A DNA stretch of 64,000 nt from Coriobacteriia bacterium (lineage in GTDB: Bacteria; Actinomycetota; Coriobacteriia; WRKU01; WQUG01). The notes beneath the pieces are model-generated. The model had not been told where the DNA came from. It saw only the letters and a program-made list of their open reading frames with translations, and did no database searches. Within the stretch, counting starts at the first letter, position 1; each line of letters opens with the position of its first letter. Below, one piece after another: positions 8,119 to 51,830 of the stretch. A program made the translations under genes and the position numbers. Location: positions 1,857 to 65,856 of the forward strand of contig WRFR01000004.1 in assembly GCA_009778715.1 (NCBI GenBank), written 5' to 3'.

Positions 8119-8959
8119 GGCTCAGTTAAAACGCCGGGTACTGCTTGCCAGCCTGCTCTGCATGCTGCTGCTTGCCTCGCTCATTTTGAGCGCCTGCTCA
8201 AAAGATACGACCGATGTGGTGGTCAGCGGGTCGACGACTGTTGAGCCCATCGCTGAGGTAGCGGGCGAGGACTACGGCAAAGCCCATCCCAACGTTTCTA
8301 TCCTGGTCAGTGGCCTGGGCTCATCGGCGGGCATTGAAGCGGTGGGGGTTACCAAGACCGCTGATATTGGCACCAGCTCGCGCGAACTTAAGGGTTCCGA
8401 GCTCAAGCTCGGCCTGAAAGTTATCCCGATCGCGCATGACGGCATTGCCGTGGTGGTCAATCCGGCTAATACCGTCAGGAATTTATCGATGTCTGACCTG
8501 CGCGCGATTTTTGCGGGGAAGATCACAAACTGGAAAGAGGTCGGCGGACCGGATGAGCCGATCACGCTTGTCAACCGCGATGAGTCCTCCGGGACCCGCG
8601 ACGCGTTCACGTCGTTTGTGATGGGAGACACTCCCTTCGAGATCAACGCGGTGGTCCTGCCGGGTACCGGCCAGGTGCGCGAGGTCATCCGGCGTACGAA
8701 GGGCGCCATCGGCTACATCTCCGAGGGCTTTGTCAAAGGCGATGTGCGCGCGCTGAGCATCAATGGCATCACGCCTTCTGCCGCTAATATTTCATCTGAG
8801 AAATATCCCCTGTCGCGCTCACTGTATTTTCTGACGCGCGCAGACCCGAGCCCGGAGGCGCAGGACTACATCAACTATGTGCTTTCCGACGCAATCCAGG
8901 AGGGGGCCGTGCGTGACGCCGGTTACCTTCCGATCAAGATAAAGAGCGGTGACAAGTGA
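8111..8959 (+). CDS. pstS: phosphate ABC transporter substrate-binding lipoprotein PstS
   Basis: ATG 8111 overlaps the yfiH stop (ATGCCTAG). Signal peptide with lipobox LSAC. PstS-like body VVSGSTTVEP...GSSAGIEAV. The ORF-track call 7793..8959 is an in-frame over-extension. Confidence 0.9.
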   Translation: MPRAQLKRRVLLASLLCMLLLASLILSACSKDTTDVVVSGSTTVEPIAEVAGEDYGKAHPNVSILVSGLGSSAGIEAVGVTKTADIGTSSRELKGSELKLGLKVIPIAHDGIAVVVNPANTVRNLSMSDLRAIFAGKITNWKEVGGPDEPITLVNRDESSGTRDAFTSFVMGDTPFEINAVVLPGTGQVREVIRRTKGAIGYISEGFVKGDVRALSINGITPSAANISSEKYPLSRSLYFLTRADPSPEAQDYINYVLSDAIQEGAVRDAGYLPIKIKSGDK

Positions 8960-12585: not shown

Positions 12586-13302
12586 ATGAGCGCGGAGCGC
12601 TTGGCGCACAACCTCGCGCAGGTGCGCGCGCGCATCGACGCTGCAGCCTTGCGTGCAGGCAGGGACCCCGTTGAGGTGACGCTGGTCGCCGTTTCAAAAA
12701 CGGTGAGTCCGGAGGTAGCTGCCCAGATGGTTGCTGCGGGGCAATCGATCCTGGGGGAGAACCGTGTTGATCGATTCCTGGAAAAGCATGTCGCGATCCC
12801 CGATGCTCAGATCCACCTGATTGGTAGTCTGCAGACCAACAAGGTTCGTTTCGTGGTGGGGCAAGCCCCGCTCATCCACTCAGTCGATAGCCGCCATCTG
12901 CTCGAAAAGATCCAGGCGCGGGCGGCGGCGATCGATATGATACAGCCCGTACTTCTGGAAGTCAACATCAGCGGCGAGGAAACAAAGCACGGCCTGATGC
13001 CCGATGAGGCGCGCGATCTGGCCACGGCAGTTGCTACTGATGAGCTTCATGCCCCCAATATTGAGATAAACGGCCTGATGACGATGGCGCCACTCGATAG
13101 TCCTGAAGCGGTACGCTGGGTGTTCAGGGACCTGAGAGGCCTGCGCGATGTGCTACGTGACTCGTTGCGCCCGGCGCCTTGCTGTGAGCGAGTCAAAATG
13201 TGCGAGCTCTCGATGGGGATGAGTAATGACTTCGAAGTCGCCATCGAGGAGGGTGCTACTCTGGTCCGTGTTGGAACATCGCTGTTCAAGGAGACGGATT
13301 GA
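12586..13302 (+). CDS. yggS: YggS/YlmE family pyridoxal-phosphate homeostasis protein (PLPHP)
   Basis: Motifs LVAVSKT (PLP lysine), ILGENRVD, IHLIGSLQTNKV and MGMSNDFEVAIEEGATLVRVGTSLF are present. ATG 12586 follows the phoU stop. The ORF-track start at 12529 overlaps phoU. Confidence 0.85.
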   Translation: MSAERLAHNLAQVRARIDAAALRAGRDPVEVTLVAVSKTVSPEVAAQMVAAGQSILGENRVDRFLEKHVAIPDAQIHLIGSLQTNKVRFVVGQAPLIHSVDSRHLLEKIQARAAAIDMIQPVLLEVNISGEETKHGLMPDEARDLATAVATDELHAPNIEINGLMTMAPLDSPEAVRWVFRDLRGLRDVLRDSLRPAPCCERVKMCELSMGMSNDFEVAIEEGATLVRVGTSLFKETD

Positions 13303-13303
13303 T

Positions 13304-13858
13304 ATGAGCATGTGGGAGAACGTAAAGTCGAAGTTCGGTTTCAGCGACGAGGACTACGACGAGTACGACGGATATGATGAGTATGAAGAGGAAGCGTCCG
13401 AGCAGGCGCCTGTTTCAGGCTCATCCAACTCATACGAGTATGAATCTCCCTATGGTTCGGGAGCCAGTGCTGGTTCAGTGCGCATGCGTCCCCGTACCCC
13501 CGACCTTGAGCGCGCATCCGCGATGACGGGCTCTCCGCTGCGTTCCGTACCCACGGGACCTGCTTCGGTCGCTCCGATGACGCCCCAGGTCCGCATTCAT
13601 AACGCGCGTCCGACCAGCTTTGAAGAGGTCAGCGTTCTGGCGGATAAGTTTAAGGCGGGAACCCCGGTGATTCTTGACCTGACGCGGGTTCCAGCTGCTC
13701 AGCAACGCCGTTTCATCGATTTCGCTTCGGGGCTTACCTATGCGCTTGACGGGGGAATCTCAAAAGTGGCGGATCTTATTTTCATGCTTACGCCCCATAA
13801 CGTTGAGATGCAGGATCTCGATCAGCATAAGTTCGGCTCTGCGCGCACCATCTTCTGA
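13304..13858 (+). CDS. sepF: cell division protein SepF
   Basis: Acidic DEDYDEYDGYDEYEEE N-terminal linker. The conserved SepF/DUF552 core reads FEEVSVLADKFKAGTPVILDLTRV...IDFASGLTYALDGGISKVADLIFMLTP. ATG 13304 follows the yggS stop. Confidence 0.85.
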   Translation: MSMWENVKSKFGFSDEDYDEYDGYDEYEEEASEQAPVSGSSNSYEYESPYGSGASAGSVRMRPRTPDLERASAMTGSPLRSVPTGPASVAPMTPQVRIHNARPTSFEEVSVLADKFKAGTPVILDLTRVPAAQQRRFIDFASGLTYALDGGISKVADLIFMLTPHNVEMQDLDQHKFGSARTIF

Positions 13859-13861
13859 AGC

Positions 13862-14005
13862 ACGCTAGATGCCCGTTGAGTGCGTTCCTGCAAAGTTCAC
13901 GTACTAAAGTACGCCACACTTTACAGCGCCTTCTCAACGAACATCAATCGTGCTTTATCTGCCGGCAATCGTTTCGCGGCGCCTTGCCAGTGGGCGTTGA
14001 TCGCA
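13862..14005. repeat. family-1 repeat element, degenerate copy D, starting 3 nt after the sepF stop
   Basis: gttcctgcaaagttcacgtactaaagtacgccacactttacagcgccttctcaac... and cgtttcgcggcgccttgccagtgggcg share the ccgcaaag/ctttgcgg and gccttgtcagg modules with copy A. Confidence 0.5.
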
Positions 14006-14063
14006 TTTTTAGACTCCGTAGTATACTGATAAAGCAAACTCTACTTAAGGAGATTCATCGTAT

Positions 14064-14915
14064 ATGGCGACACAGAACACAATAGGCCGCGTAGCAGTGA
14101 TCGGGGCGGGCAAGATGGGCTCGGCCTTGTTGGCTGGGTTCCTGAAGTCCAGGCTGGTCAACCCACGCAAGGCTGTGATCGTTGAGCACAACGCAGCTCG
14201 GCGCGCTCAACTTGAGGAAGAGTTTCCTGGGGTGACCTGTATGCAGAAGGCGACCCAACTCGAGTTGACTGCGGGTGATATTTGCCTGATAGCGGTTCAC
14301 CCTGAGACGGTTTGCGAGGTGCTCGCTCAGCTGCGCAATCGCCTGGGCGGGGCGCTGGTCGTCTCGATCGCTGGCGGCGTCACGATAGAGCAACTTCAAG
14401 GCGCGCTCCTTCCGGGATCGCCCGTGGTCCGGGTCATGCCGAACACGCCAGCCATGGTAGGCGAGGCGATGTCACTTTTGACTCCGGGTGAGCACGTGAA
14501 CAAGGCTGCGCTCAAGCTCGTGGTGAAGTTGTTCGAGAGCGTTGGGCGTGCCTGCGTCATCCCCGAAGAGCTTCAGCCTGCTGGCTCGGCGCTGTCGGGG
14601 AGCGGCCCTGCTTACTTTGCCCTGGTCGCAACAGCATTGACACGTGCCGGGGTATCCAATGGCCTACCTTTGGCGCTCGCTAATGAGTTGTCCGTGCAGA
14701 CCATGCTGGGTACTGCCCGGCTGCTCCAGGAGAGCGGCATGCATACCGAGACGCTGATCGACGCCGTCTCAAGCCCCGGGGGTACGACCGCGGTTGCCAT
14801 CGAAAAGCTTGAAGCGGCTGGCTTGCGCGCTGCTTTTACCAACGCGGTCAATGCAGCGGTTGCTCGTACCTTCGAGCAGGGATCTGATCACAGAGCAGAT
14901 ACAAATGCCGGATAA
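14064..14915 (+). CDS. proC: pyrroline-5-carboxylate reductase
   Basis: Rossmann motif VAVIGAGKMGSAL. ProC-like C-terminal dimerisation region SPGGTT. Confidence 0.9.
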   Translation: MATQNTIGRVAVIGAGKMGSALLAGFLKSRLVNPRKAVIVEHNAARRAQLEEEFPGVTCMQKATQLELTAGDICLIAVHPETVCEVLAQLRNRLGGALVVSIAGGVTIEQLQGALLPGSPVVRVMPNTPAMVGEAMSLLTPGEHVNKAALKLVVKLFESVGRACVIPEELQPAGSALSGSGPAYFALVATALTRAGVSNGLPLALANELSVQTMLGTARLLQESGMHTETLIDAVSSPGGTTAVAIEKLEAAGLRAAFTNAVNAAVARTFEQGSDHRADTNAG

Positions 14916-14967
14916 TGATAAAATGGCAAGCAATACCGGTTCACTGAATGAGAGCGAGAAAAACACC

Positions 14968-15987
14968 ATGAAGATCACTGCGCTTGATATCCATCAGAAA
15001 GAATTCGCTCGTGGTATGAGAGGCTACCGCGAAGCTGAAGTAGACTCCTATCTGGATCAGTTGGCCGTCGAGGTCGACGGGGCTGAAAAGCGTATCAAAG
15101 AGCTTGAAGAGCAGGCGGCGATGCTGGAGTCGCGGGATGCAAGCCTTGCGGCAGAGCGCAATACGATCAACAACACCCTGCTGACGGCTCAGCGAGCTGC
15201 TGACACGATGCTCAAGAAGGCGCAGACTGAATGTGCCGATACGCTTGAGGCGGCGCAGCGGCAGGCGGAGGCACAGTTGGAGAGTGCGCGCCAGCAAGCT
15301 GACCGTATTGTCGAGGACGCGCGGCAGAAGCGCCATCAGGTAATTGGTAGCTTCGCTCGCCTTCAGGGAGAGCAAGAGAAGTTCCGCAATGGCTATCTTG
15401 CCCAGCTGGAAAGCTTTCTGGCCGCAGTACGTAAGCTTGAGGCGGATTCTCGCGCATCAGTCGAGGAGATCGTGGTACCTCAGGATCTGAAAGAAGAGCT
15501 TTCGATGGCGCAACAGGCAGCCGTTGAAACGGATATAAGAGAGTCTGCTCCGGCCTCGTCAGAGACTGTTGCCCCGCCTGTTCCACCTGCTCAACAGCCG
15601 GCTGCACCAGCTCCGGCTCCGGAACCAGTTCAGCCAGCGCCGACTCCCCGTGCGGCTAAGGCTGTGCCAGCCAGTGCAGACGAAGACAAGGGGCCATTGG
15701 CTGCTGCCTTAGAGGAGTCCGACTTCTTTGAAGAGGAGAAGAAACCGTCGCCGAAGGGCGCCGACGAGTCAACCCTGTCGCAGGCGCCTGTGAAATCTGC
15801 GCCTGCGCCAGCTCCCGCTCCTGCGCCTGCGGCTCCTGCGGCAAAGCCTGCTTCAAAGGCCGCAAAGGCCAAGGCGCCGGCTCCTGCACCTGCAAAGGCG
15901 GCTGAAGCAAAAGCGCCTGAAGCGCCCTCGGTCGATCAGTGGGGCGACATGGATGATAATGATCTCGACATCGAAGAAATCGACTAA
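14968..15987 (+). CDS. divIVA: DivIVA-family cell division/polar growth protein with a Pro/Ala-rich C-terminal low-complexity tail
   Basis: N-terminus MKITALDIHQKEFARGMRGYREAEVDSYLDQL matches the DivIVA lipid-binding domain. Long coiled-coil follows. The C-terminus has PAPAPAPAP repeats. Alternative upstream starts at 14923 and 14905. Confidence 0.8.
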   Translation: MKITALDIHQKEFARGMRGYREAEVDSYLDQLAVEVDGAEKRIKELEEQAAMLESRDASLAAERNTINNTLLTAQRAADTMLKKAQTECADTLEAAQRQAEAQLESARQQADRIVEDARQKRHQVIGSFARLQGEQEKFRNGYLAQLESFLAAVRKLEADSRASVEEIVVPQDLKEELSMAQQAAVETDIRESAPASSETVAPPVPPAQQPAAPAPAPEPVQPAPTPRAAKAVPASADEDKGPLAAALEESDFFEEEKKPSPKGADESTLSQAPVKSAPAPAPAPAPAAPAAKPASKAAKAKAPAPAPAKAAEAKAPEAPSVDQWGDMDDNDLDIEEID

Positions 15988-16087
15988 GACGAGCCTAAAC
16001 GCCGTCTGACGTCGTTCCCGCAAAGCTCACGGCCTTTAAGGCCGCATCGCTTTGCGGTGCCTTGTCAGGCGACGTTTATTTCTCGTC
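15988..16087. repeat. ~100-nt imperfect-palindrome repeat element (family 1, copy A) immediately after the divIVA stop codon
   Basis: gacgagcctaaacgccgtctgacgtcgttcccgcaaagctcacggcctttaaggccgcatcgctttgcggtgccttgtcaggcgacgtttatttctcgtc. Terminal inverted repeat gacgag/ctcgtc. Nested hairpins ccgcaaagc..gctttgcgg and ggcctttaaggcc. Confidence 0.7.
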
Positions 16088-16150
16088 TTAATGTTCACAA
16101 TGCCCAATGAGGGCCTTTCTTTATGTCTTACACGAAACGATCCGTACCTT

Positions 16151-17536
16151 TTAGTGATGGCCGACCACCTGGAAGCTGGCGAGGGTAAGGCCGCCGGCAT
16201 GGCCGAAGATGAGGGCTTCTTGCCCGGCGCGTGAGTAGACACCTGCCAGATCCCCGTTGTACATATAGAGCCCGGTAAGGTCCTGAAAGGGCTCAAGTTG
16301 CGGTTCGCACAGCTGCTGCGGTTGACCACCGATGGGCAGCGAATAGACGTTGCGGATGTTAGTCGCACGGTATTGCTCAACGTATTCCTGAATGATATAG
16401 CCGGTATCGATCTTCTCGCGGATCGTTTGCTCCCATTCTGCCTGGCTGACGCCGCGTCCCGCAACGACTCCGCGCGCGGCATAAAGATCAAGCGGCTTGA
16501 TGATCCAGCGATCCTTACTGGCGAGAACATCGTTAAGGTCGACTGTGTCATTCTGCAAGCGCCAGGTGGCCGGGACATGATCGGCAACGAAGGCTGCCTC
16601 TTCAGGCGTCAATAGCGCATGGGTCTCGGGCCGGTGCAGGACCTCGAAGATGATCTTGGCATGAGCGACCTGAGTCTGAAATCCTCCTACGAGGCAAACT
16701 GCTCCAGCGCGTGCGGCGGCAAGGAAATCAGGTACCTCATCGTAGTGCGCCATGATATCAGTAGTGACCGCGCGGCGATAGAGGGCGTCGACGGGTTGTC
16801 CGTCAGTGGTCCTCAGTTGTTGTCCGTTCCACTGGAGCGTACGGATGTCGATAACCTCACAGTCGACGCCGCGAGCACGGAAACGGCGGGCGAACTCTTC
16901 CTGCTCTGCCGTGGTTGCCTCTTCCTGGAAGTCAACGATGGCGGCTCGGGGTAAAGCGTCGTGGGAGCCGCGGCGTAAAGACCAGTCCTGGTAGGTCTTT
17001 AGAAACGCCTCGACCCAGCTGTCGAAAAGCTCGAATGGCTGCAGTTCGTAGCCGCGTTTGAGCATCAGCTGAAACGCAGGGGTCTTTGCCAGGGCGGCGC
17101 AGAGCTCCCGGTCCTCGTTCATGGCAGAGGCGCCGTCGGTATTCAGTTCGCAGAACTTGAAGGCGCCGCTGTTTGCCTGGTAGAAGATATCAGCGCGCAT
17201 GATCGGGATCGGGCTCTCATAGCCGGGGTCAAGCAGGATCAGCTCCTCAAGGCGCTCATCAAAGCCGAAGAGCGCGCGATAGTGAGAATCTGCCTTGTAG
17301 CGAGTGATTACTTTTGCCAGGATATCGTACAGGGTGCTGACAATGTCACTGAACTGCTCGATAACTGAGGGCGGGTAGAGTTTGGGCAGGTAGGCGAAGT
17401 TGATCACCTCACCGTGATAGATCGCCGTTGAACTTGCCATGGCGCGCGCTGCTACAAGCTGGCCAGCACTGTCCAGTCCCGGGAGGCTGCAGACGATCTC
17501 TTTGTATTCCGCGTGGAGTTCGGGCGCGCTTTTCAT
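16151..17536 (-). CDS. ATP-grasp-superfamily carboxylate-amine ligase, possible glutathione synthetase / glutathionylspermidine-synthase-like
   Basis: 461-aa ORF translationally coupled (4-nt overlap) to the upstream gshA-like gene. C-terminal IIKPLDLYAARGVVAGRG resembles ATP-grasp nucleotide-binding regions. Exact family not resolvable by eye. Confidence 0.35.
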   Translation of the reverse strand: MKSAPELHAEYKEIVCSLPGLDSAGQLVAARAMASSTAIYHGEVINFAYLPKLYPPSVIEQFSDIVSTLYDILAKVITRYKADSHYRALFGFDERLEELILLDPGYESPIPIMRADIFYQANSGAFKFCELNTDGASAMNEDRELCAALAKTPAFQLMLKRGYELQPFELFDSWVEAFLKTYQDWSLRRGSHDALPRAAIVDFQEEATTAEQEEFARRFRARGVDCEVIDIRTLQWNGQQLRTTDGQPVDALYRRAVTTDIMAHYDEVPDFLAAARAGAVCLVGGFQTQVAHAKIIFEVLHRPETHALLTPEEAAFVADHVPATWRLQNDTVDLNDVLASKDRWIIKPLDLYAARGVVAGRGVSQAEWEQTIREKIDTGYIIQEYVEQYRATNIRNVYSLPIGGQPQQLCEPQLEPFQDLTGLYMYNGDLAGVYSRAGQEALIFGHAGGLTLASFQVVGHH

Positions 17537-18795
17537 GCGCGCGCCTCACGGGGAGTCAGCTTCTTCGCGACAAGTTCTGCGAGGGGCTTGAGGTAGTGCC
17601 GCTCATCTTCTGGCAGGTTGTGGTCTGCCAGTTCAACAATCAGGTTGAGCCAGGCGGTGGCAGGAAAGTCATAGACACAAGCTTCGTAGCCCTGCGTGCG
17701 CAGAGCCTCTTTGGCCGTCGCCACATCAGCGGCGCTGCGTTCGCTCATCTTCAGTTGCTGGCTGAGATCTGCCACCGTATCGCTGTCGTAGAAGACCCCC
17801 TTAATCAGCGCTGTCCAGGCTAGCGCCAGGTCAATGTCCATGCTGTCGGCCATGCGAATCTCAACGTAGTTCTTCAGGCGTACGTCGAAGAAGAACATCG
17901 AGAGCAGATGCTCGATCTCTGTACGGCTCATAAGTCGGTCACGGTAGAGCTCAGCAGCACTGTGGCCGTTTGCGTCGCTGAAAGTCCCGTCTGCACAGGG
18001 ACAGACGACCAGCGGAGCCGAATAAAGCGTACATGCATAGCTGGCAAACCCGAAGTCGGAGTCGAAAAGGCCGGACACGGTATTACAACGGACGGGGTCA
18101 ACGTTGTCCCAGATCTGAGTGCGGATCATGCGGCCGTCGGCGTCTGCGCCCTCGTAGCGGCTGGCGGTATCGGTTGCCAGGGCGAACAAGGGACCGAGCA
18201 GGGTGGCAAGGCGCGTCTTGAGTACCGCATCGGCCTCGTCGGTGTAGTCGATCGAGACCTGGGTCGAGGCGCTGCCCCGCATCATCTGGCGCCCACAGGT
18301 ACCAGTCGTCTGAAAGTAGGCGTCCATGAAGCGGTAGCGGTTCTTAGGGATGAGCTCGACATCATCGGCGCGCAGGTCAGGACGATAACCCTGGCGCAAG
18401 AGGTGTTGGCTGCGCGTGGTAAGGCGATCCTCGATCTCTGTGACAAAGCGTGCGTAGCTTTCCTCAAGCTGATGGATGCGGCAGAAGGGTCCCGTGCTTA
18501 TCTCGACCTGGGCGCCTGGCTCCAGGGTCAGAGTGGTGCCGGGGCGCGCCAGCCCCAGCCGATGTGTTCCCTCGCGCATCTCAGTTTCATAGTCGACCCG
18601 CAGTTCGCTAAGCAGCTGTTCGATGCCGCCAGGTCCAGAGAAGGGAACACTGGTCCCCGCGTCAGTCATGACGAATTGCTCCAGCTCAAGACCCAGCCTG
18701 CAGGCGCAGGCCTTGTCGCCGCTGCTCAAATAGGTAGCGATCGCGGCGGTATTGCGTTCAGTGAAATCAGCTTGCTGCTCTGGGCCCATGCTCAT
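17533..18795 (-). CDS. glutamate--cysteine ligase (GshA-like carboxylate-amine ligase)
   Basis: RLGLELEQFVMTDAGTSVPFSGPGGIEQLLSEL aligns with the E. coli GshA N-terminal RGLERETLRVNADGTL..GHPEALGSAL. YVEIRMADSMDIDLALAWTALIKGVFY aligns with YIEVRSLDINPFSPIGV...FMVWC. Confidence 0.55.
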   Translation of the reverse strand: MSMGPEQQADFTERNTAAIATYLSSGDKACACRLGLELEQFVMTDAGTSVPFSGPGGIEQLLSELRVDYETEMREGTHRLGLARPGTTLTLEPGAQVEISTGPFCRIHQLEESYARFVTEIEDRLTTRSQHLLRQGYRPDLRADDVELIPKNRYRFMDAYFQTTGTCGRQMMRGSASTQVSIDYTDEADAVLKTRLATLLGPLFALATDTASRYEGADADGRMIRTQIWDNVDPVRCNTVSGLFDSDFGFASYACTLYSAPLVVCPCADGTFSDANGHSAAELYRDRLMSRTEIEHLLSMFFFDVRLKNYVEIRMADSMDIDLALAWTALIKGVFYDSDTVADLSQQLKMSERSAADVATAKEALRTQGYEACVYDFPATAWLNLIVELADHNLPEDERHYLKPLAELVAKKLTPREARA

Positions 18796-18897
18796 CTTCT
18801 CTCTGTGTTGGAAGTATCTATTGTAGTCTATTGCCTGGTATCTGTATGTGGCAGCAGAACTCGCATTTGTGTTCCCTCCGCTGCTGCGTGCCAGGTA

Positions 18898-20241
18898 TTA
18901 TCGGGAAGCTTCCAGGGTAGCAATGCACTCAACGTGAGCGGTCTGAGGAAAGAGGTCGACGGGTTGCAGGCAGCACAGTGTGTAGCCCGTTGTCGTGAGA
19001 GCTGCCAGGTCACGGGCAAGAGTGGCAGGGTCGCAGCTGACATAGACGAGCCGTGCCGGGGAGAGGCGGAGAATCTCTGCGCGTGCAGCGGAGGTAAGCC
19101 CCGCGCGGGGAGGGTCGATGACCAGGGCGTCGACTGAGGAGATCCCAGCGCTGTCGCGCCCGACTTCGCCGCCGATAACCTCAGCGCAAAGCCCGGCGTC
19201 GCTTACGTTGCGGCGCAGGTCGCGCAAGGCGGGACCAGAGGACTCGACCGCGACAAGCGAGCCCGCCGCTGCCGCAAGGGGCAGGCTGAACGTGCCGACC
19301 CCGCAGTAGAGATCGGCGATGCGGTCGCTGCCATCTGCCGCGATCTCCTCACAGACGCGCGCGACCAGCAATTCGGCAGCGGAGGTGTTGACCTGAAAAA
19401 ACGATGGCGCGCTGATCTTGTAGGTAAAATTTCCCAGTTGCTCTTCCCAGTAGCCTGCGCCCGCCAACACTTCGACGCCCTTGAACTGAGGCGACGGCGC
19501 TCGGCGTCCCGCGCCGCGCGCAGGGGTTTTCTGCAGGACGCGGACGATGCTCGTGGCGCCCGGGCAGGCGGACTTCAGGGTCTGGGCGACACGGGAGCGG
19601 GGAAAGGTCCCGGGCTCGCTCACTAAGGCGATCTCGAAGGCGCCGGTCCGGCTCGAGTGTCTCAGGGCGACTCGTGACAGGCCAAAGTCAGTCGAGCCCA
19701 GGGCGTAGCGTAGCGCGCCAGATATGGCGCGTATGAGGTCCTTCTGAGGCGCTGAGAAGAGCGGGCACTCATCCGGGCTGACCAGTTCGTTGGAGCCAGC
19801 CCGATGAAACCCCAGCTCAAGGCGGCCTTTATGCAGGCGTGCTTCAAGCTCTATTTTATTGCGATAGCCATACACAACATCGGTGGTGAGCGGTTCCCGC
19901 GTCAGCGTGTCTGCATTATCAAGCTTACCGATGCGCGTGACAGCGTCAGCGACCTCGTCGCGTTTCGCAGCACGGGCCACGTCGATACTCAGATGCTGCC
20001 ACTGACATCCGCCGCAACCCCCCCAGCCAAAGGCGGGGCACCGCGGGTCCTGCCGCAGTGTGCTGGCTTCGACCAGGCGGCTGACATGCCCACGGACGAA
20101 TCGGGGTTTTTCGGTGTCGATCACTACTTCAGCTACATCGCCCGGACAACCGTAGTCGACAAAGGCGGTCCGCCCGTCAGCAAGTTGCCCGATAGCGGCG
20201 CCGCCGGCGCTCAGTCGCTTAAGGGATATCGTTTCGATCAT
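18898..20241 (-). CDS. rlmD: 23S rRNA (uracil-C5)-methyltransferase, RlmD/RumA family (TRAM + [4Fe-4S] + SAM MTase)
   Basis: N-terminal TRAM domain. Cys cluster FGWGGCGGCQWQHL. SAM-MTase motifs DLYCGVGTFSLPLA and VIDPPRAG. Confidence 0.8.
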   Translation of the reverse strand: MIETISLKRLSAGGAAIGQLADGRTAFVDYGCPGDVAEVVIDTEKPRFVRGHVSRLVEASTLRQDPRCPAFGWGGCGGCQWQHLSIDVARAAKRDEVADAVTRIGKLDNADTLTREPLTTDVVYGYRNKIELEARLHKGRLELGFHRAGSNELVSPDECPLFSAPQKDLIRAISGALRYALGSTDFGLSRVALRHSSRTGAFEIALVSEPGTFPRSRVAQTLKSACPGATSIVRVLQKTPARGAGRRAPSPQFKGVEVLAGAGYWEEQLGNFTYKISAPSFFQVNTSAAELLVARVCEEIAADGSDRIADLYCGVGTFSLPLAAAAGSLVAVESSGPALRDLRRNVSDAGLCAEVIGGEVGRDSAGISSVDALVIDPPRAGLTSAARAEILRLSPARLVYVSCDPATLARDLAALTTTGYTLCCLQPVDLFPQTAHVECIATLEASR

Positions 20242-20344
20242 CCACTCATATTAACAGAGCGGCCGCTCTTTAGCAGAAAACGTGATACTATTACTTAAAA
20301 CTAAACCTGTTGTGTAGGGCAGGTGAGTCAGAGAGGAGTCGACT

Positions 20345-20521
20345 ATGTCAGTACCTGTGGTGAATAAGGATATATGCACGGCATGTGGTACCTGCGTCGA
20401 TGATTGCCCGAACGGCTGTTACGACCTTGGAGATACTGCGGTACTTGCGCGTCCCGACGATTGCATCGAATGCGGGATTTGTGTTGATGACTGTCCTAGT
20501 GGCGCCATAACCATGGACTAG
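20345..20521 (+). CDS. 2x[4Fe-4S] ferredoxin (58 aa; not in the ORF track)
   Basis: Sequence is MSVPVVNKDICTACGTCVDDCPNGCYDLGDTAVLARPDDCIECGICVDDCPSGAITMD, with two CxxCxxCxxxCP motifs. RBS GAGAGGAG at ~20330. Confidence 0.8.
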   Translation: MSVPVVNKDICTACGTCVDDCPNGCYDLGDTAVLARPDDCIECGICVDDCPSGAITMD

Positions 20522-20526
20522 CATGA

Positions 20527-20595
20527 GACGAGCCTAAACGCCGCCTGGGGTCGTTCCCGCAAAAGCCCCTCGTTATTGAGGGGCTTTTGCTATTG
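20527..20595. repeat. family-1 repeat element, truncated copy B (5' module only) fused to the fdx/kinase terminator
   Basis: gacgagcctaaacgccgcctggggtcgttcccgcaaaagc matches the first 40 nt of copy A (35/40 identical). Begins 5 nt after the ferredoxin stop. Confidence 0.6.
20563..20590. terminator. bidirectional rho-independent terminator between fdx (+) and the lipid kinase (-)
   Basis: Hairpin gcccctc-gttattg-gaggggc followed by TTTTGC on the plus strand, with A-rich 5' flank for the minus strand. It abuts the stop of the minus-strand kinase gene. Confidence 0.6.
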
Positions 20596-21507
20596 GGGGA
20601 CGATGACCCGGAGGGCGGCAGGCACGATCCCAACTTCGAAATGATCGGCAGAGAACACCTCACCGTCCGTCTGAGCGATGACGGATGTTTCACCGACGGT
20701 GCTGATGTGCATGCTCTTGCAATCGCGGCTCTCAAATTCCTTGATGATCCCCTGTTTGGCGAAGAGTAGAAGCGGCAGGCTACTGACGAACTTCGGCTTG
20801 CTGACGTCGGCCACGATCGAGCTTGCAAGCAGGCCGTCATCAGGTTTCGCCTTGGGGTTGATACGGATGCCACCACCATAGGTCTGCCCGTTGGTCGTGG
20901 CGCAGAGCATCACTTCCCGCTCGCGCGTAGGCTCCCCGTCGTAGGCGATCCGGAGCTTGGTCGAGTGAAAATTACGGAACGCCGTGTAGATCAGCGCACG
21001 TACATAGAGCGCCAGGCCAGCGCTATGGGGATGGTTTTTGTATTCGGCGGTCTTTGCGACGACCAGGGCGTCCAATCCGACCGAGAAGCTGCTGAAGAAG
21101 AAGTGGTCGTTGCAGGTTCCCACGTCGAAGGAGCGCTCACGGCCGGCCTGCAGGACGGGAAACGCGCGGGAAAGCCCCGTGGGAATGCCGGTAAGCCTTG
21201 CGATGTCGTTGCCAGAGCCGCTCGGGATGATGCCGAGTGTCGGACGCTGGCCTGCTTCGATCTGCATCAACCCCGTGACGACTTCGCTGATCGTGCCATC
21301 ACCGCCGACGGCGACCACGCGTGTGGCTCCCGCCTGAGCGCTCTCCCAGGCAAGTGTAGTGGCATGGCTGGAGGCTTCGGTGACCAGAACGTCAGCGTCT
21401 TCTTCAGCGAAGAGGCTGCGCACGGTGTCGACCAGGCGCTCGGTAACACCATGTTGGGCATTGGGGTTGATGATGACGCGCGTAGCAGGCATACGGCTCT
21501 CTTTCAA
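20590..21507 (-). CDS. diacylglycerol kinase-family lipid kinase (YegS/DagK/BmrU)
   Basis: DAGK_cat motifs VVAVGGDGTISEV and LGIIPSGSGNDIARLTG. Confidence 0.8.
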   Translation of the reverse strand: MKESRMPATRVIINPNAQHGVTERLVDTVRSLFAEEDADVLVTEASSHATTLAWESAQAGATRVVAVGGDGTISEVVTGLMQIEAGQRPTLGIIPSGSGNDIARLTGIPTGLSRAFPVLQAGRERSFDVGTCNDHFFFSSFSVGLDALVVAKTAEYKNHPHSAGLALYVRALIYTAFRNFHSTKLRIAYDGEPTREREVMLCATTNGQTYGGGIRINPKAKPDDGLLASSIVADVSKPKFVSSLPLLLFAKQGIIKEFESRDCKSMHISTVGETSVIAQTDGEVFSADHFEVGIVPAALRVIVPQ

Positions 21508-21647
21508 AGGAATGCAAGATCAGATCAGTCAACAGGCTCCAGGTCCAGGCGCAGGGATTTCTTCGTAGAAGCCCCGAAGGATGGTTCGAAACGGCCTGAG
21601 GGCCTTGAGAACCAGCCTGAGCGGCTTATACGGAAAAAGACCAAGCC

Positions 21648-21724
21648 TGGTGCCCTCAACAGGATTCGAACCTGCGGCCTTCTGCTCCGGAGGCAGACGC
21701 TCTATCCATCTGAGCTATGAGGGC
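21648..21724 (-). tRNA. tRNA-Arg (anticodon CCG)
   Basis: Reverse complement is GCCCTCATAGCTCAGATGGATAGAGCGTCTGCCTCCGGAGCAGAAGGCCGCAGGTTCGAATCCTGTTGAGGGCACCA. 7-bp acceptor, D stem GCTC/GAGC, anticodon loop CTCCGGA, T-loop TTCGAAT and encoded CCA are present. Confidence 0.9.
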
Positions 21725-21922
21725 ATATCCGTCGGCTTTTTATTATACGACATGCCGTCTCACCGTCGCATCGGGTGCGATTAGTGCTTAATTTGTGCAA
21801 AGAGGGGTCGCGTTGCTGTGTTGTTGCTTTATACTGGACAAGGTAGATTAAGGTTCACGGAGACCCCTGTGTCTCCGGGGAACTCTTTATGTCCTGATGT
21901 TACAGATGAACAGGAGGCTGGA

Positions 21923-23983
21923 ATGGCAGACGCCGCAGGTGCCAAACTCAGAAATGTCGTCCTTGTTGGCCATGGAGGAGCGGGGACTACTTCGCTTGCC
22001 GAGGCTCTTCTTCATTACACGAAGGCGACGCCTCGCCTGGGCAATGTTGACGCCGGGCAAAGCAACCTTGACTATGACAGCGAGGAGATCGAGCGTAAGT
22101 TTACGATCAACCTCTCGCTCGCGCCGCTCACTTACAAAGGGGTCAAGGTCAACCTTATCGACACGCCGGGCTACGCCGACTTCATTGGTGACGCCATCGC
22201 GGGTATGCGCGCAGCAGAGATCGCGCTGTTTGTGGTCGACGCGGTCGGCGGGCCGCAGGTCACGACCGATCGCCTCTGGCAGATAGCTGGCGAGATGGGT
22301 ATCCCGCGCGCGATCTTCGTCAACCGCATGGACAAGGAGCACGCCGACTACTCGGAGACATTCGCGAAACTGCGCTCCCGTTACGGCAAGGCCGTGGTTC
22401 CCGTGCAGATCCCGATTGGCGCTGAGGAGAATCTTGAAGGTGTGGTCGACGTGATCCGCCAGCAGGCGTTCTATCATAAAGATCCTGAGAAGGCCTGCGA
22501 GATCCCAGCTGACATGCAGGAACGCGCGTCCAAGGCGCGCGAAGCGCTGGTCGACAGCACGGCTGACGCTGATGAAGAGCTGATGATGAAGTACCTGGAG
22601 GGTGAGGAGATCACGCTTGAGGAGCTCGACAGCCTGCTGGGTGTGGCGGTTACGGCAGGCACGGTCGTACCCGTCTTTGCCGGATCAGCTGCAAAGATGG
22701 CCGGTATCGATGACTTACTCCAGGCAATCGTTGACTACTTTCCCAAGCCGGGCGAAGGGCCGAAGTTCCCGCTGGCAGACGGCAGCGACTTTGACGCCAG
22801 CACGGCTTCTGGTTTTACCGGATTTGTGTTCAAGACGCTCAGCGACCCCTATGTAGGACGCCTGAGCTTTGTGAAGGTGCTTTCTGGTAGCGTCAAGGAT
22901 GGCGACGACTTCATTGATTCGCGTACTGGCGATAAAGAGCGCGCCTCTCATGTGGTCACGATGGTCGGCAAGGAGACAAAGAGCCTCACGGGGACCGTGG
23001 CTACGGGCGACATCGTTGTGTTGCCCAAGCTTGGCTCCGTTTTGACCAACGATACGCTCTCAACGACCGGCAAGGTGGCGCTTGCGCCGATGCCGTTTCC
23101 GGAGGCGCTCTATCCGGTGGCCATTGTGGCCAAGACCAAGGCTGATGAGGATAAGCTGGGGACTGCCCTGAAGACGATCGTCGAGGAGAATCCCACCGTC
23201 GAGCTGGAACGCAATGAAGAGACCCATCAGACCGTGCTCAAGACCTACGGGGATACCGCAGTCGACGTCATCGTCGCACGTTTAAAGGATCGCTATCACG
23301 TGGAGACGGAGCTTGATGAGCTGCGCATCCCGTATCGCGAGACCATCCGTAAGGTCGCCCAGGCACAGGGGCGCCACAAGAAGCAGAGCGGTGGTTCGGG
23401 GCAGTTTGGCGATTGCTGGCTGCGCCTTGAGCCTAACCCGGGCGGCGGTTTTGAGTTCCTCGATGAGGTCGTAGGCGGCAGGATCCCGCGCCAGTTCATC
23501 CCAGCGGTCGACCGTGGGGTGCAGGAGACCATGACGCAGGGCGTCATCGCCGGCTATCCCGTGGTCGACGTGAAAGTGGCAGTCTATGATGGCAGCTACC
23601 ATGCGGTCGATAGTAACGAGATGGCTTTCCGCTCGGCGGCCCGTATCGGGTTCCGCGCGGCTGCGGCGCTGGCCTCTCCCGTTATCCTCGAACCGATGGC
23701 GAGCCTGACCATCACGGTACCCGACGAGTATGCGGGCGCGGTCATGGGCGATATCAGCAGCCTGCGCGGCCGGGTGCTCGGTATGGGCGCCGGCGCGGCG
23801 GGCATGCAGGAGATCAAAGCGATGGCGCCTTATGCGGAGGTCGCGAACTACTCGCCCCACCTGCGCTCGCTTTCCCATGGCACCGGCATCTACACGATCG
23901 AGCTGGAAGGCTATGAGCAGGTGCCTGGTGAGGTACAGAAGCAGTTGATCGCCGACTATGAGGCGTCCAGGGCGCACGACTAA
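21923..23983 (+). CDS. elongation factor G-like GTPase-fold paralog with degenerate nucleotide-binding motifs
   Basis: AGGAGG RBS at 21911-21916 before ATG 21923. EF-G domain order with G3 motif DTPGYADF. The P-loop reads GHGGAGTTS (Lys replaced) and G4 reads NRMD instead of NKxD. C-terminal EF-G IV/V-like domains are present. Confidence 0.7.
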   Translation: MADAAGAKLRNVVLVGHGGAGTTSLAEALLHYTKATPRLGNVDAGQSNLDYDSEEIERKFTINLSLAPLTYKGVKVNLIDTPGYADFIGDAIAGMRAAEIALFVVDAVGGPQVTTDRLWQIAGEMGIPRAIFVNRMDKEHADYSETFAKLRSRYGKAVVPVQIPIGAEENLEGVVDVIRQQAFYHKDPEKACEIPADMQERASKAREALVDSTADADEELMMKYLEGEEITLEELDSLLGVAVTAGTVVPVFAGSAAKMAGIDDLLQAIVDYFPKPGEGPKFPLADGSDFDASTASGFTGFVFKTLSDPYVGRLSFVKVLSGSVKDGDDFIDSRTGDKERASHVVTMVGKETKSLTGTVATGDIVVLPKLGSVLTNDTLSTTGKVALAPMPFPEALYPVAIVAKTKADEDKLGTALKTIVEENPTVELERNEETHQTVLKTYGDTAVDVIVARLKDRYHVETELDELRIPYRETIRKVAQAQGRHKKQSGGSGQFGDCWLRLEPNPGGGFEFLDEVVGGRIPRQFIPAVDRGVQETMTQGVIAGYPVVDVKVAVYDGSYHAVDSNEMAFRSAARIGFRAAAALASPVILEPMASLTITVPDEYAGAVMGDISSLRGRVLGMGAGAAGMQEIKAMAPYAEVANYSPHLRSLSHGTGIYTIELEGYEQVPGEVQKQLIADYEASRAHD

Positions 23984-24017
23984 GGCCAAGTGAGATAAAG
24001 ATTAAGCGAGACTAACG

Positions 24018-25451
24018 GTGGACAGGACAAAATACGAAGCAGCACATCAGCTCTATCAGGAGCAGAACTATCGGAAAGCAGCGCGGCTTTTTCTGGAAGC
24101 AGCCGATGAGGGAACCCCCCTTGACAACGGGCTAACCTACCACGGCGCTGGCAACTGTTTTATGCGATTGAAGCGCTACCACGATGCGATCGTTGTCTAT
24201 GAGCAGGCCTTGCGCGACGACAGCTACCAGAAGCGGGGCACGGTCGAGAACAACCTTGCCAACGCCTATCTGCAGAACGGCGACTTCAGTCAGGCGATCG
24301 CGCATTTTGAGGCGGCGTTGGCTGAGAGTACGATGTATGAGCCCTACAAGTGCTATCAGGGGCTTGCTCATGCTTACTTTGAGCAGCAAGCCTACGAACA
24401 GGCGGCCTTAGCTTATAAGAACGCCGCCCTCGATGAGCGCAACTCGAACCCCGGTGCGTCGCTTGTCAATCTTGGGCTATGCATGATGGCTTTGGGACGA
24501 CCGGAGTCTGCGGTAGAAGCCTACAGCGCGGCACTGGGCGTCGAGAACTATCCAAACCGTGGTAAAGCCTTGGCGAACCTGGGGATGGCTTACTACGCGT
24601 GCGGGGACTATGTGCGTGCGAAACGGGCGCTAGAAGAAGCACAGGTCATGCACCACTACCAGCTAAACCCCGCTGCAGTTGGGGTGCTGGTAACCTGTCA
24701 GGAGAAGTTGGCTGCCCAGCCAGATGAGGTTGAGGGTGCAATGCCTGATGAGCCAGTAGCCGCAGCTGGAGCTCCTGCCGAGCCAGCCGTATCAGACGCG
24801 ACTGAAGAGGGAAGGGCCGAGGCGTCGGAAGAGGCGCCACTTGCAGGCGCAGATGTTGAGCCTGCGGACCCGGCTGCTCCCCTGGCGGCGGCCACCGGTG
24901 CGGAGCAGCAAGCGGCGGCGGAGCCGGGCGCCTCAGTTGAGCCAGAACCTGGCAAAGCACGGGCAGAACAGGATACTGGACAGGTCGGCCCCCTTGAAGA
25001 GGTCGACGCGTTTTATGAGCTCTCTGAAAAGGAGATCACAAAACGCAGCAAACAGGAACTGAAGCGCAAGCGGGGTGTGTGGCGTTGGCTGAAGCCGGTG
25101 CTCATCGTGCTGCTTGTTCTTGTGATCCTTGCCGGAGCGGCTGTGGCATTTTTCAGTACGGGCTTTGGTGTCCCTTCTATCAATAACACGATCACAAGCA
25201 TGTTCGCTGCCTATAAAGCGTCCGGAGACTATGAGAGTCATTGGGTCGCGGGTTCCCAGAATATTGACCGGCAGATGGCGGCGATACCTCCCAAGGCCGA
25301 TGTTTCAGTCAACACGATCGCTCCCAGTATGTTATCGAGCTCAGCCCAGGTAACGGTTGTCGACAACGCTTCAATGAACCTTAAATTTACGGTTATCTGC
25401 AAGCGGGTCGGCTTGGGTTGGAAAGTGTCTTCGGTCACAGGCGATTACTGA
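24018..25451 (+). CDS. TPR-repeat protein with acidic Ala/Glu/Pro-rich linker, single TM helix and small extracytoplasmic C-terminal domain
   Basis: Repeated TPR-like Y..A......A...Y periodicity in the N-terminal 230 aa. TM segment WRWLKPVLIVLLVLVILAGAAVAFF. Confidence 0.65.
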   Translation: MDRTKYEAAHQLYQEQNYRKAARLFLEAADEGTPLDNGLTYHGAGNCFMRLKRYHDAIVVYEQALRDDSYQKRGTVENNLANAYLQNGDFSQAIAHFEAALAESTMYEPYKCYQGLAHAYFEQQAYEQAALAYKNAALDERNSNPGASLVNLGLCMMALGRPESAVEAYSAALGVENYPNRGKALANLGMAYYACGDYVRAKRALEEAQVMHHYQLNPAAVGVLVTCQEKLAAQPDEVEGAMPDEPVAAAGAPAEPAVSDATEEGRAEASEEAPLAGADVEPADPAAPLAAATGAEQQAAAEPGASVEPEPGKARAEQDTGQVGPLEEVDAFYELSEKEITKRSKQELKRKRGVWRWLKPVLIVLLVLVILAGAAVAFFSTGFGVPSINNTITSMFAAYKASGDYESHWVAGSQNIDRQMAAIPPKADVSVNTIAPSMLSSSAQVTVVDNASMNLKFTVICKRVGLGWKVSSVTGDY

Positions 25452-25479
25452 TCACTAAGAAAATGAAAGGACTATCCTT

Positions 25480-25884
25480 ATGACAGAAACCACGTATGTG
25501 ATGATCAAGCCTGACGCAGTCGCTTCGGGAAAGATCGGTAGGATCATCAGTCGCTTTGAAGATGCAGGCCTTACGATCGAGCGCCTGGAGATGGGCATCC
25601 TGACGCGCGAACAAGCTGAAGGCAATTATGGGGAACATAAAGGCAAACCGTTCTATGAGGGGCTCATCTCCTATATCACGTCCGGTCCAGTTGTAAAGAT
25701 GGCGATCTCTGGTGAGGGAGCGGTCAAAAAATGCCGCACCTTGATGGGGCCGACCAATCCGGCCGAAGCAGCTCCTGGCACGATCCGGGGGGATTTCGGG
25801 CTTGTGACCGACGCCAATGTCATTCACGGGTCGGACAGTCCTGAGTCAGCGGCTCGCGAGGTTGCTCTCTTCTTCGGCGCCTGA
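25480..25884 (+). CDS. ndk: nucleoside diphosphate kinase
   Basis: Motifs TYVMIKPDAV and NVIHGSD (active-site His). 134 aa. Confidence 0.95.
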   Translation: MTETTYVMIKPDAVASGKIGRIISRFEDAGLTIERLEMGILTREQAEGNYGEHKGKPFYEGLISYITSGPVVKMAISGEGAVKKCRTLMGPTNPAEAAPGTIRGDFGLVTDANVIHGSDSPESAAREVALFFGA

Positions 25885-25985
25885 CGCGTCTAAACGCCGT
25901 CCGGCATTGCTCTCGCAGAACGCGCGCGCTTTAAGCCCGCTACGTTTTGCGGCGCCTTGTCAGCGGATGTTTACCTTGCATCAGG
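25883..25985. repeat. family-1 repeat element, copy C, overlapping the ndk stop codon
   Basis: gacgcgtctaaacgccgtccggcattgctctcgcagaacgcgcgcgctttaagcccgctacgttttgcggcgccttgtcagcggatgtttacc. Same module order as copy A, with compensatory changes in the inner hairpin (gcgcgctttaagcccgc). Confidence 0.65.
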
Positions 25986-26087
25986 TAGTGTATGCCGGTA
26001 ACAGCTCTAGAACACTTTACAGCGCTCCCAGAATCTTCAGGTGATAATTATATATACTCACGCAATGAAACGGAGTAGGAGACCTGT

Positions 26088-27128
26088 GTGTCACTAAGCG
26101 ATATGTTCTTCAAATCTATGGGTACCGATATTGCTGTCGATCTTGGGACGGCTAATACCCTTGTTTCGGTGCGCGGAAAAGGCATCGTCCTGATAGAGCC
26201 TTCAGTGGTCGCTATCGAGCAGGATACCGGTCGCGTACTGGCGGTTGGCAAAGAGGCCAAGCGCATGATCGGGCGTACGCCTGGCTCGATCGTCGCTACC
26301 CGCCCACTCAAGGATGGCGTCATCGCTGACTTCAATGTGACCGAGGCCATGCTTCGTTATTTCATTAACCGGGTTCGTGAACCCAAATTCTTGTTCCAGC
26401 CAAAACCCCGCGTCGTGGTCTGTGTTCCCTCCGGGGTGACCGAGGTCGAAAAGCGCGCCGTTTTCGAGGCCGCGATGACAGCGGGCGCCCGGCATGCGTT
26501 CCTGATCGAAGAGCCTATGGCAGCTGCTATTGGCGCCGGCCTCCCGATCCAGGATCCTACTGGTTCGATGGTGGTCGATATCGGCGGCGGCACGACTGAG
26601 ATCGCGGTCATCAGCCTGGGAGGCATCGTTGTTTCGACCAGCCTGCGAATCGCTGGTGATGAGTTTGACGAGGCGATAGTCGACTATGTGAAACGTGCTT
26701 ACAATGTGTTGATTGGCGAACGTACCGCAGAAGAGATCAAGTTCGAGATCGGGAGCGCGTATCCCCTTGATGAGGAGGTCGACGTTGAGGTGCGTGGTCG
26801 TGACCTGACCACGGGCCTGCCGGTCACGATCACGATGGAAAGCGAAGAGATTCGTGATGCAATCGAAGGACCGATCAGCGCGATACTTGACGCCATGAAG
26901 CGTACGCTCGAGAAAACCCCGCCCGAGCTGTCCAGCGATCTGATGGAGTTCGGGGTGGTTCTCACCGGGGGCGGCGCACTGTTGCGCGGCCTTGATGAGC
27001 GCCTGAAGGTAGAAACGAAAATGCCGGTCTACGTATCGGAAAGTGCTTTAATAAACGTCGTCAACGGTTCAGCCCAAGCTCTTGAAGAGATCGATGTGCT
27101 GAAGAAAGTCCTGCAGGGCACACACTAG
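26088..27128 (+). CDS. mreB: rod shape-determining protein MreB
   Basis: Actin-fold motifs [20 protein letters not shown] and [13 protein letters not shown]. Confidence 0.95.
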
Positions 27129-50447: not shown

Positions 50448-50731
50448 AACCATCCCAAATTATAGCAGTTTTGGGATGGTCTATTTGGTGGGGGCATCGC
50501 ATTAAAGCAGCAGAGTGGGCGCTAGATTTTACGGATTCCGGTTGAGTAGAGCTTATGATGTTTGATAGGTGATAGAGCAATCAAGACCGCCGGGTGATTA
50601 GTCGGGGCACATGAGAATGAGAGGTTGCAGACGAGATGAGCCGTCATCGCTCTTCAACTGAGGGCGGAGCAAAACTTTTTATCGTTGATTAAAGTGAAAA
50701 TGCCACCTGAAGGGAGGGCAACTGCGCGTGG

Positions 50732-50789
50732 TGGTGGAGCTTAGGGGGCTCGAACCCCTGACCTTCTGGCTGCCAGCCAGACGCTCTCC
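50732..50789 (-). repeat. 58-nt exact direct repeat of the 3' half of tRNA-Ala(GGC); left boundary (att) of the genomic island
   Basis: tggtggagcttagggggctcgaacccctgaccttctggctgccagccagacgctctcc is identical to 60610-60667 (CCA end through anticodon arm and D-stem). The sequence then diverges. Confidence 0.85.
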
Positions 50790-51056: not shown

Positions 51057-51159
51057 AATTACTCTTTCGTGAGGCATCAACTAATGCTTGAGAGTATAAT
51101 AACTACCATGTTGCGATTAGGATGTTCGACATAGACAGAGGGGTTAACCTGCGGAAAGA

Positions 51160-51513: not shown

Positions 51514-51518
51514 GTCAT

Positions 51519-51824: not shown

Positions 51825-51830
51825 GTTATT

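Follow-up and report, generated by a model that had tools for sequence, protein, structure and literature searches.

The 3′ ends of sepF, divIVA, fdx and ndk in a 64,000-nt segment of an actinobacterial contig (hereafter the window; WRFR01000004.1, positions 1,857–65,856) carry members of a previously undescribed family of structured palindromes, about 100 nt long, from a Coriobacteriia-like actinobacterial lineage of the termite gut. We read them, with a probability of roughly one half, as an old, vertically inherited, REP/ERIC-like family of 3′-end hairpins that mark and protect mRNA ends. Palindromic repeats dispersed among gene ends are well known from Proteobacteria and some Firmicutes. 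To our knowledge they have hardly been described in Actinobacteria, and we know of no description from Coriobacteriia-like gut lineages. The family is unusual in its strict orientation, in the inclusion of the stop codon in its helix, in its long vertical retention and in its low density.

For NDK and ProC, the nearest proteins are found in termite-gut metagenomes and in metagenome-assembled genomes (MAGs) labelled Actinomycetia or Coriobacteriia bacterium, and the host is an uncultured Coriobacteriia-like actinobacterium of the termite gut. The window is contained in a 113-kb metagenome contig (ERZ27257295:k141_1786855), of which the search space covered 81 kb, made up of the window and 17 kb of additional flank. 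Syntenic contigs of relatives were obtained via the NDK and ProC proteins and then searched with a covariance model of the element; loci outside the window carry L numbers. The termite-lineage set comprises nine full copies, three in the window (E1a, E2 and E4) and six in related metagenome contigs.

Fold, covariation and position of the element

Each copy is predicted to form one long imperfect hairpin of about 100 nt with an outer stem that in most cases includes the stop codon, a lower and a middle stem, and a short apical stem closed by an A/T-rich loop. For E2, the best-preserved copy, the nested hairpin described in an earlier sequence-only reading of this DNA is the minimum-free-energy fold (−58.8 kcal/mol, z=−9.4). 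Its outer stem GACGAG/CTCGTC lengthens to TAAGACGAG/CTCGTCTTA (15985–16093), and above it the hairpin continues through the lower stem and a conserved internal loop rich in pyrimidines to the middle stem CCGCAAAGC/GCTTTGCGG and an apical GGCC-TTTAA-GGCC. E4 (−47 kcal/mol, z=−3.9) and E1a (−27.8 kcal/mol, z=−4.95) fold into the same architecture, with outer stems CCTGACGCG/TGCATCAGG (25880–25988) and, stop codon counted in, TGAAGCACG/CGTGCTTTA, respectively. E2 (15988–16078) and E4 (25883–25973) are 76% identical over 91 nt, and the 18-nt 3′ module TTTGCGGYGCCTTGTCAG occurs three times with at most 3 mismatches, against 0.17 expected.

The covariance model matches E1a, E2 and E4 (E = 1e-21 to 1e-32) and nothing else in the window. 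No additional copy was found in the 17 kb of extra flank, leaving four sites per 81 kb of contig, all inside 12 kb. The sequence-only reading had placed four related elements at these sites, beginning 0–5 nt after the stop codons or overlapping them, and all four exist where it put them. Two of them were drawn differently there. The stretch 13862–14005, taken as one element, does hold related sequence, divided between the full but divergent E1a and a 3′ half copy, E1b. The supposed truncated copy at 20527–20595 keeps its 5′ module of about 40 nt (E3), which is 92% identical to E2 over its first 38 nt, and the remainder is an unrelated canonical terminator hairpin.

Covariation across copies strongly supports the fold. 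Eleven full copies match the covariance model (E 1e-14 to 1e-28), and pairs were counted in an alignment of these 11 that was itself fitted to the model. Standard pairs make up 90.9% of cells and 20 of the 28 pairs have changed on both sides, values matched by none of 500 shuffles; sliding the partners by 1–3 columns drops pairing to 31–45%. An independent run of MAFFT and RNAalifold on six copies gave compensatory pairs at 14 of 28. The compensatory stem changes proposed earlier are therefore confirmed with 11 copies, and the elements stand as a multi-copy family whose long hairpin covaries. In contrast to the variable stems, two unpaired stretches of the internal loop, 5′ GYGTTSC opposite 3′ GYGCCTTG, are near-invariant.

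Pairwise identity among copies is 55–76%. The termini GACGMG...CKCGTC recur at different genes, and the terminal inverted repeats, of 6–9 bp, are of GACGAG/CTCGTC, AGCACG/CGTGCT and ACGCG/CGCGT types. GACG/CGTC stands at the ends of about half the copies, where it forms base pairs of the outer stem. Self-folding is conceivable for the 5′ arm of E2 but not for the arms of E1a and L031, and covariation is confined to the long-range pairing. A REP-doublet reading was rejected, as the arms do not self-fold in every copy.

All nine termite-lineage copies are co-oriented with the upstream gene (65–101 bits forward, 16–31 bits reverse) and begin 0–5 nt from its stop codon. This codon is wholly paired in the predicted outer helix of eight of the nine, its A-rich context pairing with the T-rich 3′ flank. 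Convergent genes flank E2 and E3, whereas downstream of E1 comes a conserved promoter-like block of proC and downstream of E4 a conserved block that precedes mreB. Judged by this gene layout, the element sites are the probable ends of transcription units. Gene identities rest on Pfam for SepF, P5CR, DivIVA and NDK and on translation for the ferredoxin (Table 1).

Table 1. Element copies and neighbouring genes in the window.
Feature	Position	Strand	Evidence and remarks
sepF	13226–13858	+	Pfam SepF E=9e-22; TGA 13856–13858 inside E1a outer helix
E1a, full but divergent copy after sepF	13859–13953	+	cmsearch 88–92 bits, E 1e-25 to 1e-27
E1b, 3′ half copy (CGTTTCGCGGCGCCTTGCCAGTGGGCGTTGATCGC)	13958–14005	+	nhmmer model positions 59–94, E=2.6e-4; pattern match
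proC, pyrroline-5-carboxylate reductase, downstream of E1	14064–14915	+	Pfam P5CR_dimer E=1e-31
divIVA open reading frame	14794–15987	+	Pfam DivIVA E=3e-24; TAA 15985–15987 paired in E2 outer helix
E2, best-preserved copy, directly after divIVA TAA	15988–16087	+	cmsearch 101–102 bits; full copy also bounded at 15988–16084
fdx, 58-aa 2x[4Fe-4S] ferredoxin	20345–20521	+	two CxxCxxCxxxCP motifs; orthologs match Fer4 families
E3, 5′ module only (~40 nt, GACGAGCCTAAACGCCGCCTGGGGTCGTTCCCGCAAA)	20527–20566	+	nhmmer model positions 3–40, E=0.0045
Canonical intrinsic-terminator-like hairpin GCAAAAGCCCCTC-GTTATT-GAGGGGCTTTTGC, then TATT	20561–20593	+	fold, sequence; substitutes remainder of E3
ndk	25480–25884	+	PF00334 NDK; TGA 25882–25884 overlaps the GACGCG box of the element
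E4, full copy, overlaps ndk TGA	25883–25979	+	cmsearch 79–84 bits
mreB, first of mreBCD-pbp2-rodA, downstream of E4	26088–27128	+	Pfam MreB_Mbl on called gene

The true start of divIVA probably lies downstream of 14915. E3 begins 5 nt after the fdx stop codon (TAG, 20519–20521), and the terminator-like hairpin that replaces its remainder, unrelated to the element, stands between fdx and a convergent DAGK-family gene. E1b lies directly upstream of the proC block CCGTAGTATACTGATAAAGC (14016–14035), and a block GGTAACAGCTCTAGAAC (25997–26013) ahead of mreB is conserved in relatives. The longer GGTAACAGCTCTAGAACACTT upstream of mreB (25997–26030) and the proC block are conserved in relatives with or without the element and probably serve these genes as promoter or leader sequences. 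A 13-nt match, CACTTTACAGCGC, between E1a and the block upstream of mreB is held to be coincidence, because relatives without the element conserve the block as well and the chance of such a match is about even in 64 kb. In-frame read-through of divIVA into E2, where the frame stays open for about 40 codons, was dismissed, as the ndk frame stops after two codons.

The family matches no Rfam family, as the sequence-only reading had supposed. With Rfam 15 at gathering thresholds only two tRNAs pass in the window; at E up to 10 no match overlaps a full copy there, and at E up to 1 nothing matches the copies in relatives. The only sub-threshold Rfam matches that touch an element fall on the E3 terminator hairpin (rnk_pseudo at 27 bits, threshold 55, and microRNA models). 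A scan of 185,579 species genomes with the pattern TTYGCGGYGCCTTGYCAGNNNNYGTT returned no family member; its sole matches, two Acidobacteria MAG contigs, do not fit the model (<=11 bits) and were set aside. These two and nine metagenome contigs have one conserved sequence in common, unrelated to the element (pattern-matched Acidobacteria soil contigs L009–L017, L021 and L022). None of three pattern matches in viral contigs fits the model, and blastn of E2 and of the soil hairpin described below against plasmids gave just short chance matches.

Inheritance and loss of copies

Relatives hold six more copies. Five full copies are in syntenic contigs, after divIVA in L032 and L031, after sepF in L032 and after fdx in L029 and L030. 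A metagenome pattern scan added a full copy in a termite-gut contig (L020), straight after the TAG of an ABC-transporter gene. A covariance search of L003, L005, L007, L034 and L035 found no copy. Within the syntenic region, the relatives' copies are confined to the sepF, divIVA and fdx sites, all of which are used in the window too. E1a has its ortholog at L032 1843–1936, E1b a degenerate orthologous arm in the same contig, E2 orthologs in L032 and L031, and the site of E3 is occupied by full copies in L029 and L030.

Several details point to common descent at these sites. A 1-nt gap and a ...CGTG 3′ tail are private to the sepF copies, and the flank TTAATG is common to the divIVA copies in the window and in L032. 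Four-fold degenerate sites of proC are only 38–52% identical between the window and its relatives, close to saturation, yet positional orthologs of the divIVA element are 68–74% identical with almost invariant loop motifs, which indicates that the elements are constrained.

Empty sites were compared at all genes. E4 is missing in three relatives whose NDK proteins are 87–88% identical, and their spacer at the ndk site is about 100 nt shorter. A clean-insertion reading of these sites was weakened by the comparison, because the short spacers hold element fragments. Candidate remnants, all short matches made by eye, are TGCCAGCAGCGTCGCGTC after ndk in L007, ACGCGCC-CGACGTTCTCTC after fdx in L031, and GCGGCGCCT...TTCCGYCTRAG after divIVA in L029/L030; by the same kind of match, the fdx terminator of L034 reuses the element's GGCCGCATCG. 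At the fdx site, canonical hairpin and T-tract terminators stand in the window, L031 and L034, and the full element in L029 and L030. Some relatives have lost the divIVA, sepF or ndk copy with no visible replacement motif.

The sharing of sites, together with the remnants, favours an ancestral set of copies that decayed differently among lineages, rather than repeated insertion at a target. On this comparison, we favour a common ancestor of the sampled relatives in which the copies already stood at the 3′ ends of sepF, divIVA and fdx, and vertical inheritance since; the copy at the 3′ end of ndk was probably ancestral too. The shape would then have been kept by compensatory substitution in some lineages and lost by deletion or by replacement with an ordinary terminator in others, the course that we favour. 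Retention, compensatory evolution, decay to remnants and terminator replacement can thus be viewed side by side at orthologous sites.

The same distribution invites a different explanation, in which the copies are an active non-autonomous element of the MITE/REPIN kind, without host function, that a transposase encoded elsewhere inserts repeatedly beside stop codons or terminator-like palindromes. Copies occur at unrelated genes, including the ABC-transporter gene of L020, and those at different genes have the terminal inverted repeats GACGAG/CTCGTC in common. Presence varies among close relatives, as at ndk; E1b is a tandem half copy, L018 holds internally deleted copies, and E3 is 92% identical to E2. 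The GACG...CGTC ends are also reminiscent of the CGTC-tagged REP superfamily, whose members lie within 20 bp of open-reading-frame ends (PMC3733652).

Other features speak against mobility, and we consider it unlikely. The sequence-only reading had suggested insertion with a target preference for stop codons, a claim that is not supported in that form, since there is no target-site duplication and no transposase in the neighbourhood and the empty sites look like deletion remnants. The flanks are inverted rather than directly repeated (TAA...TTA, TAG...CTA) and merely lengthen the stem. Transposase genes are absent from the annotated genes of the 81 kb of contig covered and of the other loci; window and flank encode housekeeping genes plus one island. 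No copy lies beyond the 12-kb stretch within the 81 kb, syntenic relatives use the same three sites and never new ones, and the orientation is strictly one. The arms are not independently palindromic in every copy, and pairwise identities of just 55–76% make recent bursts unlikely. About 290 kb of fetched loci contained no parent insertion sequence (IS) with matching ends. One candidate IS with inverted ends, L014, proved to be a perfect whole-contig inverted repeat and was rejected as an assembly artefact.

A proposed role at mRNA 3′ ends

Under the reading that we prefer, that of inherited 3′-end hairpins, the element would be transcribed together with the upstream gene and make up the final ~100 nt of its mRNA. 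With the stop codon located in its basal helix, the hairpin could close only after the terminating ribosome departs. Once closed, it would define and protect the 3′ end of the transcript, by termination, by blocking 3′-to-5′ exonucleases, or by both, a mode of action also ascribed to REP, ERIC and the long, U-tract-poor stem–loops typical of actinobacterial 3′ ends. A mere terminator needs no conserved loop sequences, which suggests that some protein probably reads the internal loop, either an RNA-binding factor or an enzyme that once dispersed the family. The strongest, if indirect, support for a 3′-end role comes from fdx, where canonical terminators replace the element in three lineages.

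Known systems offer partial parallels. REP, REPIN and BIME elements, including those with GTAG/CGTC tags (Di Nocera et al. 2013, PMC3733652; Bertels and Rainey 2011, PMC3116915), are likewise extragenic palindromes found mostly downstream of open reading frames, with possible stop-codon overlap. They can form ~100-nt hairpins, are vertically inherited and long-lived, and have a supposed role at RNA 3′ ends; many copies here also end in GACG...CGTC. REPs lie <20 bp from the 3′ ends of open reading frames, can supply the stop codon and form dimers that fold into hairpins (PMC3733652). They consist of self-folding units of 20–40 nt, two of them in inverted orientation in a REPIN, whereas the element here is a single long hairpin, and their GTAG/CGTC tag is unpaired, whereas the GACG/CGTC boxes here pair mutually. 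The present copies differ further in their strictly single orientation and low density, and no RAYT was seen among the genes of the window and flanks. Tagged REPs are placed mainly in Proteobacteria by PMC3733652, and the host here is an actinobacterium.

ERIC/IRU, Correia/NEMIS, RUP, YPAL and EFAR, MITE-like hairpin repeats of enterobacteria or Gram-positive bacteria (reviewed in Delihas 2008, PMC2229807), are imperfect palindromes of ~100–170 nt in transcribed intergenic space. Repeats of the ERIC type resemble the element in co-transcription with flanking genes and in pairing between their 5′ and 3′ ends. ERIC is co-transcribed and affects mRNA stability via ribosome-dependent refolding, stability having been proposed to depend on a ribosome that opens the base of the hairpin (PMC2229807). 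In contrast to these repeats, to which they have no known sequence similarity, the present copies have neither a TA or other target duplication nor a known parent IS, give no sign of both orientations, and are much more diverged (55–76%) and held at orthologous sites.

Actinobacterial 3′-end stem–loops are long and often lack U tracts (PMC13613805). These stem–loops and intrinsic terminators (PMC13613805) share with the element a long stem after the stop codon, a weak or absent U tract, and an A-rich 5′ flank (here the stop codon) that pairs with a T-rich 3′ flank; at the fdx site the two are interchangeable. Ordinary terminators form no sequence family, whereas here loops and termini are shared at unrelated genes.

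A number of observations weigh against the 3′-end interpretation or limit it. The strand test counted 26 G–T cells against 12 A–C cells (18 with an extra position, columns 15/103), and the antisense strand folds better than the sense strand by 4.4 kcal/mol on average. The sense strand is thus not favoured, and the constraint could act on DNA or on either strand. The earlier suggestion of a structured RNA in the 3′ untranslated region (3′ UTR) accordingly fares well on position and orientation and less well on the fold, since sense folds no better than antisense; termination or stabilisation of transcripts, like the RNA role as a whole and the loop-reading factor, is something we infer from sequence patterns. 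Internal loops of conserved sequence would be superfluous in a plain terminator, a T-rich 3′ tail is limited to some copies (present in E2, L029, L032 and L030, weak in E4 and L031), and in a simple terminator consensus scan the sole match was a sub-hairpin inside E2. Since GC skew stays positive over the entire window, the effect of gene direction on copy orientation is confounded with that of replication. The remnant calls at empty sites, being short matches by eye, are suggestive. Finally, E3 resembles E2 (92%) more than it does the L029 copy at fdx (~70% by eye), which suggests conversion or copying within the genome and is not predicted by pure vertical descent.

The conserved loops admit further interpretations. 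As a putative binding site whose sequences stay near-invariant while the stems covary, they could mark a regulatory recognition site, in RNA or DNA, through which one dedicated protein links the division and morphogenesis genes sepF, divIVA and mreBCD-pbp2-rodA. In line with this, division or shape genes border three of the four sites in the window, retention at the same genes is long, and copies are few and clustered rather than genome-wide. However, fdx and the ABC-transporter gene carry the element too, in several relatives the divIVA, sepF or ndk copy is gone and no substitute motif can be seen, and the clustering may merely reflect a small sequence sample, so we find this proposal distinctly improbable. 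We also think it quite unlikely that the element is a cis-acting structured motif, used at sepF, divIVA and the mreB operon as division and morphogenesis genes, with a loop read by a dedicated protein and ribosome-gated folding, rather than a decaying selfish repeat.

The unpaired conserved residues are C/U-rich and resemble anti-Shine–Dalgarno sequences, and an mRNA 3′ end is the typical location of small RNAs processed from 3′ UTRs. The copies might on that ground yield such RNAs, with pyrimidine-rich loops (UUCC, GCCUU) that would pair with the Shine–Dalgarno regions of targets. The helix is very stable, however, and the motifs occupy its small internal loops rather than accessible apical ones; we judge this origin of small RNAs very improbable.

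An integron attC site, or another site-specific recombinase target after each gene, is scarcely credible. Both attC sites and the element are imperfect palindromes of similar length just 3′ of an open reading frame, with bulges and internal loops, and several copies have AAAC...GTTT at the base of the main stem. Unlike in attC cleavage sites, the AAC/GTT triplets here covary (GATG/CATC, GGCG/CGCC): the RYYYAAC...GTTRRRY core is lacking, and the base of the main stem reads AAACG/CGTTT, AGATG/CATCA or AGGCG/CGCCG. It is this unconserved, covarying core that excludes attC, and the genes concerned are a syntenic core rather than cassettes, with no integrase nearby.

If the conserved loop is a protein-binding site, it would define a new RNA–protein or DNA–protein pair. 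The stop codon within the basal helix makes a coupling between translation termination and 3′-end folding directly testable, and the covariance model can be used to annotate 3′ ends in termite-gut metagenomes.

Related hairpins and other loci

A conserved hairpin of ~113 nt, found with a 26-nt pattern from the 3′ arm, lies between an SDR gene and an FAH-family hydrolase gene in three soil loci of Casimicrobiaceae-like Betaproteobacteria (L019 1193–1305, L023 969–1082 and L033 9837–9950). It begins 9–12 nt after the SDR stop codon, ahead of the FAH-family gene, and is single-copy in 20 kb. Its lower stem and internal-loop motifs (GYGTTGC/GCGCCTTG) are in common with the termite elements, and a termite-only model scores these loci at 28–32 bits, with other pattern-selected controls at <=11 bits. 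Part of this resemblance arises by construction, because the loci were found via that pattern. Were the module akin to the termite element, and the element the cis-acting motif considered above, the module would be older and wider than one lineage. Pairing would be possible between the CU-rich 3′ tail of the soil hairpin, TTCTCCTCGC, and AAGGAGG, the ribosome-binding site of the gene downstream.

Two termite-gut contigs from the metagenome pattern scan show further arrangements. In L018, internally deleted copies lie beside a tRNA gene, where a unit of ~70 nt with a 109-nt period (8535–8713, minus strand) holds a deleted copy in which the 5′ GTCTAAAC is fused straight to the 3′ arm TCGCTTTGCGGCGCCTTGCCAGACAACGTTTATCCTTCGTC. 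In L020, just downstream of the element after the ABC-transporter gene, a Phd/YefM-ParE toxin–antitoxin pair (4564–5125) is flanked by two hairpins of identical type, GTGACAAA-N13-TTTGTCAC (4525–4553 and 5237–5265). Similar GTGACAAA...TTTGTCA hairpins occur in L029 (~2853–2889 and 3124–3152). Hairpins of this GTGACAAA type may be a second small family or cassette boundaries.

Elsewhere in the window, the 3′ 59 nt of a tRNA-Ala(GGC) gene (60610–60685, minus strand) are duplicated exactly 9.9 kb away (50731–50789 and 60609–60667). The interval between them (~50790–60608) looks like an island integrated into the tRNA gene; no integrase was identified. Its G+C content is ~0.50 against 0.58, and it encodes a WXG100-like protein, a 1758-aa RHS/YD-repeat protein (52191–57467) and LRR_5 repeat proteins.

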